A stretch of 64,000 bases of DNA from an uncultured Candidatus Saccharibacteria bacterium (GTDB taxonomy: Bacteria > Patescibacteriota > Minisyncoccia > Phycocordibacterales > Zambryskibacteraceae): assembly GCA_964642835.1 (NCBI GenBank), contig CAZXQA010000001.1, positions 325,387-389,386 on the forward strand. Reading direction: 5' to 3'. The notes below the pieces were generated by a model. It saw only the letters and a program-made list of their open reading frames with translations, ran no database searches and was not told the origin of the DNA. Both the position numbers and the translations under genes were made by a program. Below, piece by piece: positions 34,368 through 35,110 of the stretch; positions within the stretch are counted from its first letter, which is position 1; each line of letters starts with the position of its first letter.

Positions 34368-34397
34368 AGAGCTATTTTAGCATGTTTAAGAAAGTAC

Positions 34398-34426
34398 TTG
34401 ACAAATCTACTATTTAGGTGTATGAT
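34398..34426 (+). promoter_or_regulatory. Consensus-like sigma70 promoter (TTGACA, 17 bp, TATGAT).
   Basis: acTTGACAaatctactatttaggtgTATGAT. The RBS AGGAGGA is 7 nt before the ATG at 34448. Confidence 0.55.
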
Positions 34427-34447
34427 TAGAAGTAGGAGGATTTACCC

Positions 34448-34642
34448 ATGCCGAACCGTCAACTGCGCTTGAACGTGAAGAGCACCAGGCACTTCGTCGC
34501 GAACGCTCACGATCTCATGGAAAATGCGAGAAAGGACACGCCGATGCCTCGCCTCGGCGCCTGGAGCTCCCATGACCCCGAGAGCTGGAGGCGGGCGCAG
34601 CATCTGTATCAGTTCCCCGCCAAGCCGTATTCAAGCAACTAG
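34448..34642 (+). CDS. Hypothetical 64-aa protein.
   Basis: MPNRQLRLNVKSTRHFVANAHDLMENARKD... It has a dedicated promoter, RBS and terminator. Confidence 0.5.
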   Translation: MPNRQLRLNVKSTRHFVANAHDLMENARKDTPMPRLGAWSSHDPESWRRAQHLYQFPAKPYSSN

Positions 34643-34663
34643 AAACGGCCAGGAAAGCCAAAA

Positions 34664-34695
34664 GGGCGACTCTCACGAGTCGCCCTTTCTTTATA
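34664..34695 (+). terminator. Rho-independent terminator (9-bp perfect stem).
   Basis: aaa-gggcgactc-tcac-gagtcgccc-tttctttata. Confidence 0.7.
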
Positions 34696-34708
34696 TACGA
34701 AGAGGTCA

Positions 34709-34737
34709 TTGACAAATAGGATTATTATATGTAATGT
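34709..34737 (+). promoter_or_regulatory. Consensus-like sigma70 promoter (TTGACA, 17 bp, TAATGT).
   Basis: caTTGACAaataggattattatatgTAATGT. The RBS GAGGAG is before the ATG at 34759. Confidence 0.55.
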
Positions 34738-34758
34738 AGTAGACAGAGGAGAACAGAA

Positions 34759-35052
34759 ATGAAAGTGACAACTCGGGTTGGTCGACGGATCGACAACAAG
34801 CAGATCGTCGAAGTTATTTGGGAAAACGAGGAAGAAGCGCCGGGCTCAAAAAGAGTACGCACCCACCATGAGGGAGTGCGCGTGGAAGGCACTCGACCCT
34901 TCCACCTCGAAGTTCAAGGTGAAGGTTTGACGCTCTTCAAGAACCTGGCTGTTAGCTACCACCAGGCTCTCGCCGCGGTGGTTTGTGCAGGACTCACGCC
35001 GGCGCAAATCCAGGCACTGAGAGAAACGGTGCCGAACCTCACGCTTCTGTAA
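34759..35052 (+). CDS. Hypothetical 97-aa protein.
   Basis: MKVTTRVGRRIDNKQIVEVIWENEEEAPGSKRVRTHHEGVRVEG... It has a dedicated promoter, RBS and terminator. Confidence 0.5.
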   Translation: MKVTTRVGRRIDNKQIVEVIWENEEEAPGSKRVRTHHEGVRVEGTRPFHLEVQGEGLTLFKNLAVSYHQALAAVVCAGLTPAQIQALRETVPNLTLL

Positions 35053-35063
35053 CACAACGCAAA

Positions 35064-35095
35064 GGGCGACCCTCACGGGCCGCCCTTTCTTTATA
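35064..35095 (+). terminator. Rho-independent terminator, a near copy of the one at 34664-34695.
   Basis: aaa-gggcgaccc-tcac-gggccgccc-tttctttata. Confidence 0.65.
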
Positions 35096-35110
35096 CCTCT
35101 CTTATATATT

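Follow-up and report, generated by a model that had tools for sequence, protein, structure and literature searches.

Here we analyse a gene junction in an uncultured Candidatus Saccharibacteria bacterium, within a 64,000-nucleotide (nt) stretch of contig CAZXQA010000001.1 (assembly GCA_964642835.1; the whole stretch is hereafter referred to as the window). A 730-base pair (bp) gap in the window, between a helicase–nuclease gene and the end of an rpoB–rpoC–dnaG–rpoD unit, holds two small open reading frames (ORFs), ORF-A and ORF-B. An initial annotation had described them as unrelated tandem ORFs of 64 and 97 amino acids (aa), each with a 17-bp-spacer promoter, a strong Shine–Dalgarno (SD) sequence and a terminator. 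This layout was recovered at the same coordinates: BLASTP gave no alignment of ORF-A with ORF-B at E ≤ 100, Pfam domains confirmed the flanking genes, and the promoter, SD sequence and terminator of each ORF could be read in the sequence. We compared the junction with three related genomes, namely L004 (NCBI GCA_020049755.1, a single 4.2-kb metagenomic contig), L008 (a sister metagenome-assembled genome (MAG), also from an uncultured Candidatus Saccharibacteria) and L031 (GCA_034680565.1). The features of the junction, with predicted regulatory elements, are as follows.

31413–34367, minus strand: helicase–nuclease gene, left flank, 984 aa, a UvrD-type and PD-(D/E)XK fusion (Pfam UvrD-helicase 1.6e-55, PDDEXK_1 3.3e-28).
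34389–34426, plus strand: predicted promoter P1, with an A-rich upstream (UP)-element-like AGAAAGTAC (34389–34397), TTGACA (34398–34403), a 17-bp spacer and TATGAT (34421–34426); 11/12 consensus.
34434–34439, plus strand: SD sequence of ORF-A, AGGAGG, 8 nt 5′ of the ATG, as read in the sequence.
34448–34642, plus strand: ORF-A, 64 aa, an orphan (codon-position pattern against L004).
34661–34695, plus strand: predicted terminator T1, with a 12-bp stem AAAGGGCGACTC/GAGTCGCCCTTT, loop TCAC and tail CTTTATA, 18 nt past the ORF-A stop codon.
34709–34737, plus strand: predicted promoter P2, with TTGACA (34709–34714) and AATAGG, a 17-bp spacer and TAATGT (34732–34737); its upstream A-rich part is degenerate.
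34746–34751, plus strand: SD sequence of ORF-B, GAGGAG, 7 nt 5′ of the ATG.
34759–35052, plus strand: ORF-B, 97 aa, of a rare unannotated family (codon-position pattern against L004; HMMER).
35061–35095, plus strand: predicted terminator T2, the T1 stem in which C-G replaces a T-A pair and one mismatch (A·C) occurs, loop TCAC, 8 nt past the ORF-B stop codon and 22 nt past the rpoD stop codon.
35111–36307, minus strand: rpoD, right flank, the last gene of the rpoB–rpoC–dnaG–rpoD unit converging on T2 (Sigma-70 regions 1.1 to 4).

The helicase–nuclease gene is divergent from ORF-A and occupies the same position in L004 and L031. The dnaG, rpoC and rpoB genes lie on the minus strand and were identified by their DnaG, Rpb1 and Rpb2 domains.

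A comparison with L004 revealed how the two ORFs are constrained. Of the 11 nt at which ORF-A differs, 9 are third codon positions (ratio of nonsynonymous to synonymous divergence (dN/dS) 0.05, P = 2.6e-5), and of the 31 nt at which ORF-B differs, 19 are (dN/dS 0.22, P = 4e-4); the remaining same-strand frames of both ORFs have dN/dS values above 1.5. This third-position bias and the low dN/dS argue that ORF-A and ORF-B are real coding genes under purifying selection. A reading of both units as non-coding RNAs is rejected by the codon-position pattern, and Rfam gave no match either at the gathering threshold or at E ≤ 10. The family check, made against hidden Markov model and other profile libraries, was negative for both ORFs: Pfam, NCBIfam, PHROGs, PADLOC and PDB sequence profiles yielded no match at or near threshold. 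ORF-A is an orphan, with its only relative in word-indexed searches in L004, and its AlphaFold2 (AF2) model consists of two helices at a predicted local distance difference test score (pLDDT) of 61, which is low confidence.

Near-identical promoter and terminator modules had been proposed for the two units. This holds for the terminators, which agree at 32 of 35 nt, and fails for the promoters, which agree at 32 of 68 aligned positions (47%). The 35-nt module at T1 and T2, AAAGGGCGAC(T/C)CTCACG(A/G)G(T/C)CGCCCTTTCTTTATA, was searched as a degenerate pattern and has two matches in the window, against 0.00 expected; copy counts for the source genome refer to this 64-kb window of a contig of at least 487 kb. 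The predicted fold of T1 has an energy of −21.4 kcal/mol (z −6.3) and that of T2 −18.3 kcal/mol (z −4.7). Three U residues at the stem base are followed by CUUUAUA, giving the U-tract of an intrinsic terminator, and the plus strand was flagged by a terminator scan; the tract is interrupted, and its efficiency is uncertain. Across six terminator copies from three genomes, 93% of the stem positions are paired, compared with 32–61% when the partner columns are slid by 1–3 positions, and three stem pairs have changed on both sides (G-C to C-G, G-C to A-U, and U-A versus C-G). The maintained pairing and these two-sided changes indicate that the hairpin has been selected as a structure. A covariance model of the six copies scored T1 at 63 bits and T2 at 64 bits, with the next best site in the 64 kb at 24 bits, and its matches in the loci of the relatives fall at the same junction only. 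The stems of about 12 other terminators in the window are unrelated to those of T1 and T2.

Beyond the window, a scan of 185,579 species-representative GTDB genomes gave 21 pattern matches, each in a different record. Twenty of these belong to unrelated phyla and are terminators of the generic form AAAGGGCG...CGCCCTTT, and the remaining one lies in L008, in a stretch identical to L004. None of the scanned genomes contains many copies, the sister-species MAG has one match in its whole assembly, and JGI metagenomes and viral contigs contain 0 matches. These counts bear on the idea that the hairpin is a dispersed or recombination element (of the repetitive extragenic palindromic (REP), miniature inverted-repeat transposable element (MITE) or attC type) and not a terminator. 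REP elements and their bacterial interspersed mosaic arrays, enterobacterial repetitive intergenic consensus sequences and Correia-type repeats resemble T1 and T2 as repeated GC-rich palindromes at gene 3′ ends, and the A·C mismatch of T2 is conserved in all three genomes. REP-type families comprise tens to hundreds of dispersed copies, whereas here two copies occupy one locus, with none elsewhere in the related loci; each copy lies 8–18 nt past a stop codon and runs into a T-rich tail, and each cassette is served by a promoter of its own, as integron cassettes are not. We give this reading hardly any credence, the least of all those considered. T1 and T2 are instead a locus-specific paralogous family related by descent, and, within the sequence covered, the genome-wide REP-like repeat that the initial annotation had set against its own proposal was not found. 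T2 is flanked by an A-tract and, on the opposite side, by a T-rich run, its minus strand was also flagged as terminator-like, and it lies between the convergent ORF-B and rpoD genes. For these reasons T2 is probably bidirectional, also terminating the rpoB–rpoC–dnaG–rpoD unit.

The promoters follow a different pattern. P1 and P2 have in common TTGACAAAT (−35 element and AAT) and the length of the spacer (17 bp), and in both the ATG lies 21 nt past the −10 element; the spacing of their −35 and −10 elements falls within the 16–18 bp of sigma-70-type promoters. L004 matches the window at 91% identity over the P1 intergenic region and conserves the ORF-B leader AGAGGAGAACAGAAATG. The proximal subsite of the UP element has the consensus AAAAAARNR (PMC4132738); as a sequence match alone, AAGAAAGTA in P1 (about −46 to −38) fits 8 of its 9 positions, and AAGAGGTCA in P2 about half of them. 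The part common to P1 and P2, AGAAAGTAC-TTGACAAAT, is a generic strong-promoter consensus. The fuller promoter module AGAAAGTACTTGACAAAT, an 18-mer, occurs four times in the window at ≤3 mismatches (0.05 expected) and twice in L031; copies lie 5′ of a 61-aa ORF (12161–12346, minus strand) and 5′ of a predicted ORF-less transcript of about 235 nt (47055–47326, minus strand). The P2 12-mer TTGACAAATAGG is also present at 12398 (minus strand), and TTGACAAATAG is present in the L031 promoter Pc. Among IMG/VR viral contigs, 90 with differing GC content contain the exact 18-mer AGAAAGTACTTGACAAA(A/T) (viral loci L034–L113). TGnTATAAT typically comes after it at a spacing of 17 bp, and in two contigs a second copy lies about 118 nt from the first; the 18-mer seems to be an optimal promoter sequence that is widespread in phages. 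This recurrence in the window, in L031 and in viral contigs argues that the likeness of P1 and P2 reflects convergence on a strong consensus and is not cassette-specific: both would have approached a generic optimum, with no recent copying. The promoter likeness thus cannot serve as the specific module for which it had been taken, since it recurs at other small transcripts in the window and across viruses.

A second promoter class, TTGACTTTT...TTGTGCTAGTATTAA(G/A)GAAGGAGGTT, was also observed in the window. Its copies at 401 (minus strand) and 25920 (plus strand) are near-identical, stand before unrelated genes and are more alike than P1 and P2; the gene behind the promoter at 25920 is a 96-aa ORF (25968–26258) without a family match.

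The gene content of the junction varies among relatives: it comprises ORF-A and ORF-B in the window, ORF-A, an NYN-domain gene and ORF-B in L004, and a homologue of ORF-B (ORF-B′) and ORF-C in L031. The order in L004 is ORF-A, T1, the low-GC NYN-domain gene, a 78-bp duplicate of P1, ORF-B and T2. The NYN (PIN-like RNase) gene and the duplicate lie at 2173–2848 of L004, between ORF-A and ORF-B; the duplicate reaches 9 nt into the helicase gene. It is 97% identical to the P1 region, takes in the helicase start codon and is positioned to drive ORF-B there. The NYN insertion and the P1 duplicate are the footprint of a recent rearrangement, and the duplicate reveals that local module duplication does happen at the junction. 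In L031, HisRS, an RNase-H-like gene, a DsbA-like gene and the helicase precede the gap, and rpoD, dnaG and rpoC follow it; the gap itself reads Pa (AGAAAGTACTTGACAAAA), ORF-B′, Tb (AAAGGGCGACTCGCAAGAGCCGCCCTTT), Pc (AGAAAGTACTTGACAAATAG), ORF-C and Tc (AAAGGACGACCCTCACGGGCCGTCCT). ORF-B′ is 47% identical to ORF-B. ORF-C (6487–6789, plus strand) is a 100-aa orphan with a promoter, an SD sequence and a terminator, and its GC content at third codon positions (GC3, 0.77) is genome-like. A pipeline-called 123-aa gene on the minus strand of L031 (6454–6825) has a GC3 of 0.53 and is probably a shadow ORF. ORF-A is absent from the L031 gap, and tblastn of ORF-C against the window found no homologue. 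Word-indexed searches for more relatives gave L004 alone, and a search of metagenome and viral contigs for related loci gave none. Across genomes, the rpoD-proximal hairpin is slightly closer by position (T2 and Tc agree at 25 of 28) than to the other copy.

These comparisons bear on the two interpretations offered in the initial annotation. A modular system is seen at the locus itself, in that L031 keeps the same promoter and terminator modules while some of the small ORFs that they surround are different, although the promoter part is generic. The other interpretation, that a promoter–ORF–terminator unit was recently doubled in tandem and one coding sequence then replaced, would account for the identical geometry of the two units (spacer, and distance from −10 to ATG) and for the closely matching terminators, and the P1 copy in L004 demonstrates promoter duplication at this very junction. 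However, the promoters agree at fewer than half of their positions, the ORFs are unrelated, and both terminator subtypes are already present in L031, whose DnaG protein is 73% identical. The terminator duplication therefore predates the split from L031, and a recent duplication of the cassette is improbable.

We compared the divergence of the cassette tract with that of its flanks, measured as protein identity and as the proportion of synonymous differences (pS).

Helicase, window against L004/L008: protein identity 85%, pS 0.68.
rpoD, window against L004/L008: protein identity 96%, pS 0.56.
dnaG, window against L004/L008: protein identity 77%, pS 0.67.
rpoC (part), window against L004/L008: pS 0.45.
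ORF-A, window against L004: protein identity 97%, pS 0.23.
ORF-B, window against L004: protein identity 87%, pS 0.24.
ORF-B, window against L031: protein identity 47%, pS 0.75.

The pS of the cassette tract is thus 2–3 times below that of the four flanking core genes (0.23–0.24 compared with 0.45–0.68). Of about 2,000 sliding windows of equal size in these core genes, not one was as low, the combined value for ORF-A and ORF-B being 0.235 and the lowest window 0.33. Moreover, the core genes are only slightly more distant from L031 than from L004, whereas ORF-B falls to 47% identity with L031, and the divergence of the ORF-B protein from L004 is about fivefold lower than predicted from the L031 comparison. 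Codon bias is not supported as the source of the low pS, because both ORFs have a codon adaptation index (CAI) lower than the median of the window. Nor does the CAI lend support to the high expression suggested in the initial annotation. A blastn search for a phage or plasmid source of the tract gave no match. The low pS of the tract relative to its flanks suggests that the tract (about 34368–35095) was exchanged between lineages after the core genes had diverged, unless L004 is chimeric.

Collectively, we favour, with a probability of about 0.7, a reading in which the junction is a variable islet holding two independent, monocistronic and canonical small-protein units, whose terminators are old local paralogues and whose tract was exchanged later than the flanks diverged. 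Several observations weigh against it. The exchange is read from one 4.2-kb metagenomic contig, L004, and its cassette part has this single source; given the 78-bp repeat, L004 could be chimeric. RNA-level constraint may likewise underlie the low pS, and the lowest pS windows of rpoC, at 0.25–0.27, approach the values of the ORFs. The cross-genome positional orthology of the T1-type and T2-type hairpins would rest on one or two stem positions, and further copies of this type may be present elsewhere in the source contig. Both AF2 models are of low confidence (pLDDT about 60), and promoter strength, transcript ends and translation are deduced from sequence features, a literature search for Saccharibacteria transcriptomes having turned up nothing of relevance.

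The first of these objections amount to a reading without any lateral exchange, in which the low divergence is an artefact of a chimeric L004 or reflects RNA-level constraint on synonymous and non-coding sites. In addition to the repeat in L004 and the low rpoC windows, this reading can draw on the P1 intergenic region, which is plausibly functional almost throughout. Nevertheless, the part of L004 comprising T2 and rpoD is reproduced exactly in the independent MAG L008 (1058 of 1058 nt identical over the overlap), the tract differs from the window sequence by 5–11% and so does not come from the window strain, and the below-median CAI and the fivefold shortfall in ORF-B protein divergence also speak against it. 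We consider it unlikely, while granting it more weight than any other competing explanation. The L008 contig begins exactly at the T2 hairpin (positions 1–30), and this assembly break fits a repeat or strain heterogeneity there.

A further reading assigns the modules themselves a role in exchange: promoters and terminators would act as short homology arms, between which small genes are inserted, deleted or swapped without a dedicated recombinase. The same modules surround different genes in the three genomes, the rpoD-proximal hairpins resemble each other by position even though the ORFs before them differ, the pS of the tract is anomalously low, and the sister MAG contig is broken exactly at T2. 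Conversely, only three genomes are involved, the modules span 18–35 nt, shared descent cannot be read from a promoter module that is generic, neither module accompanies the NYN gene, and differential loss from a three-cassette ancestor would give the same pattern. We therefore regard this scaffold as doubtful. Slightly more doubtful still is its fullest form, in which the helicase–rpoD junction would be a recombinase-free plug-in site, with the modules framing interchangeable small-protein genes and whole cassettes swapped within and between lineages. If true, it would explain both the differing cargo of the three genomes and the 2–3-fold lower pS of the tract, and the site would serve a reduced genome as a minimal, integron-like platform for expression.

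In the favoured reading, with two independent units in a variable islet, each unit would comprise a conventional, strong housekeeping-sigma promoter (TTGACA and TAnnnT 17 bp apart, preceded by a UP-like A-rich stretch), an inferred leader of about 14 nt with a strong SD sequence, a short ORF and an intrinsic terminator. T1 would insulate ORF-B against read-through from ORF-A, and T2 would end transcription from either side, that of ORF-B as well as that of the convergent rpoD operon. The terminators would be old local paralogues kept alike by selection on pairing, to which gene conversion may also have contributed, and the islet tract as a whole would have been exchanged between lineages later than the divergence of the core genes. 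Within this scheme, we infer the transcription start and stop points, the bidirectional termination and the lateral exchange.

So construed, the units closely resemble the canonical sigma-70/sigma-A monocistronic unit with an intrinsic terminator. They share its TTGACA, 17-bp spacer and TAnnnT, and just past the stop codon a GC-rich hairpin of 12 bp closes a 4-nt loop and leads into a U-rich tail; P1 also has, as a sequence match, the UP-like A-rich stretch at about −46 to −38 (8/9). The A-tract 5′ of the stem is likewise compatible with a bidirectional terminator between convergent genes. We find no mechanistic difference from this canonical unit; what is unusual is that adjacent genes have paralogous terminators that remain recognizable across genomes with saturated synonymous sites.

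The islet also shares features with larger variable genomic islets, including conserved flanks (the helicase and rpoD), differing content, an accessory NYN nuclease gene in one relative and a divergence history of its own. In contrast to such islets, it is tiny (0.7–1.4 kb), lacks integrase, tRNA and transposase hallmarks across the loci read, and has as its cargo self-contained small-protein units with common promoter and terminator modules. Integron cassette arrays are similar in their tandem short unrelated ORFs, in the palindrome after each and in their strain-variable content. They differ in that here each unit has its own promoter and SD sequence, and the hairpin is of the terminator type with a T-tail, not an attC site; moreover, the immediate neighbours are the helicase and rpoD genes, with no integrase next to the array, other window ORFs not having been screened for an integrase.

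To define the family of ORF-B, we performed an exhaustive HMMER search of 1.84 billion representatives, which gave six further full-length relatives of 95–152 aa (hmmsearch E-values from 5e-16 to 1e-4 for these six small proteins). The family is thus very rare, with about eight members among 1.8 billion representatives. We define it by a length of 95–120 aa together with two motifs of its alignment, hVGRRxDN at the N-terminal end and AGLTxEQxxAL..VPNLTL at the C-terminal end, both present in ORF-B. One 152-aa relative (P0010; L029, 839–1297) has the C-terminal helix module in tandem duplicate (...GFTxEQxxALKRDxPNxELL twice); because the module is doubled there, the C-terminal part of the family may be a separate structural unit. 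The AF2 model of ORF-B has five strands followed by two helices (pLDDT 60, low confidence), and a Foldseek search of the PDB with this low-confidence model returned nothing below E = 2. We tentatively regard the protein as soluble, with a beta-then-alpha arrangement.

ORF-B is kept as a stand-alone gene in several genomes resembling those of the candidate phyla radiation (CPR). Its family members lie between the helicase gene and rpoD (window, L004 and L031), beside a release-factor gene and rpsB–tsf (L028 and L029) or beside scpA and an SLT gene (L033), and most have their own TTGAC(A/T) promoter and a terminator. Promoters similar to TTGACTTTT with an extended −10 element were also seen 5′ of ORF-B homologues in L028 and L030.

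Given the position beside rpoD, ORF-A and ORF-B might form a functional pair tied to that gene, such as a toxin–antitoxin system or an anti-sigma factor with its antagonist. Both are small and adjoin rpoD in three genomes. Yet a strong terminator and a second promoter lie between them and make them separate transcription units, ORF-A is absent from L031, homologues of ORF-B stand alone beside the release-factor gene and rpsB–tsf or beside scpA and the SLT gene, and neither protein has a Pfam, PADLOC or NCBIfam match. The co-transcribed and co-inherited pair that characterizes type II toxin–antitoxin systems is therefore not what is found here, and we judge such a pairing very unlikely. Nothing supports a functional tie of ORF-B, or of ORF-A, to rpoD; elsewhere, ORF-B homologues adjoin rpsB–tsf, a release-factor gene or scpA.

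Other small units occur in the window, all on the minus strand. The unit at 47055–47326 has a promoter of the P1/P2 class (AGAAAGTGCTTGACAAGT ... TAAGAT), a predicted transcript of about 235 nt without an SD sequence or a convincing ORF, and a terminator at 47082–47060; its predicted fold (−93 kcal/mol, z −3.4), with no Rfam match even at E ≤ 10, makes it a candidate for an unclassified structured RNA. The unit at 12050–12407, the third small-protein unit to stand alone, consists of a promoter AGAAAATGCTTGACAAATAGG-...-TATGAT, which closely resembles the L031 promoter Pc, the 61-aa ORF at 12161–12346, which has no family match, and its own, unrelated terminator at 12074–12050. Two further small ORFs lie in tandem at 10164–10767, one of 58 aa (10585–10761) and one of about 89 aa ending near 10207, each with a strong SD sequence and its own terminator (10569–10547 and 10188–10164); these terminators are unlike each other, indicating that tandem small units are common in this genome and shared terminators are not. 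Separately, three tRNA-Ala genes (anticodons CGC, GGC and UGC) lie within 600 nt on alternating strands at 1219–1800.

Taken together, the regulatory parts of the locus are conventional, and ORF-A and ORF-B are genuine and novel in family terms. Two small-protein genes are thereby supported as coding in a reduced-genome lineage in which such genes are usually dismissed, and ORF-B founds a very rare family conserved, as a stand-alone unit, across several CPR-like genomes. The strong-promoter consensus and the terminator, being usable for the clade, could help its annotation and eventually the development of genetic tools for Saccharibacteria. Beside some of the most conserved transcription genes lies a micro-islet whose content turns over and whose divergence history is unlike that of its flanks, and which may provide a window on gene flow in uncultured episymbionts.

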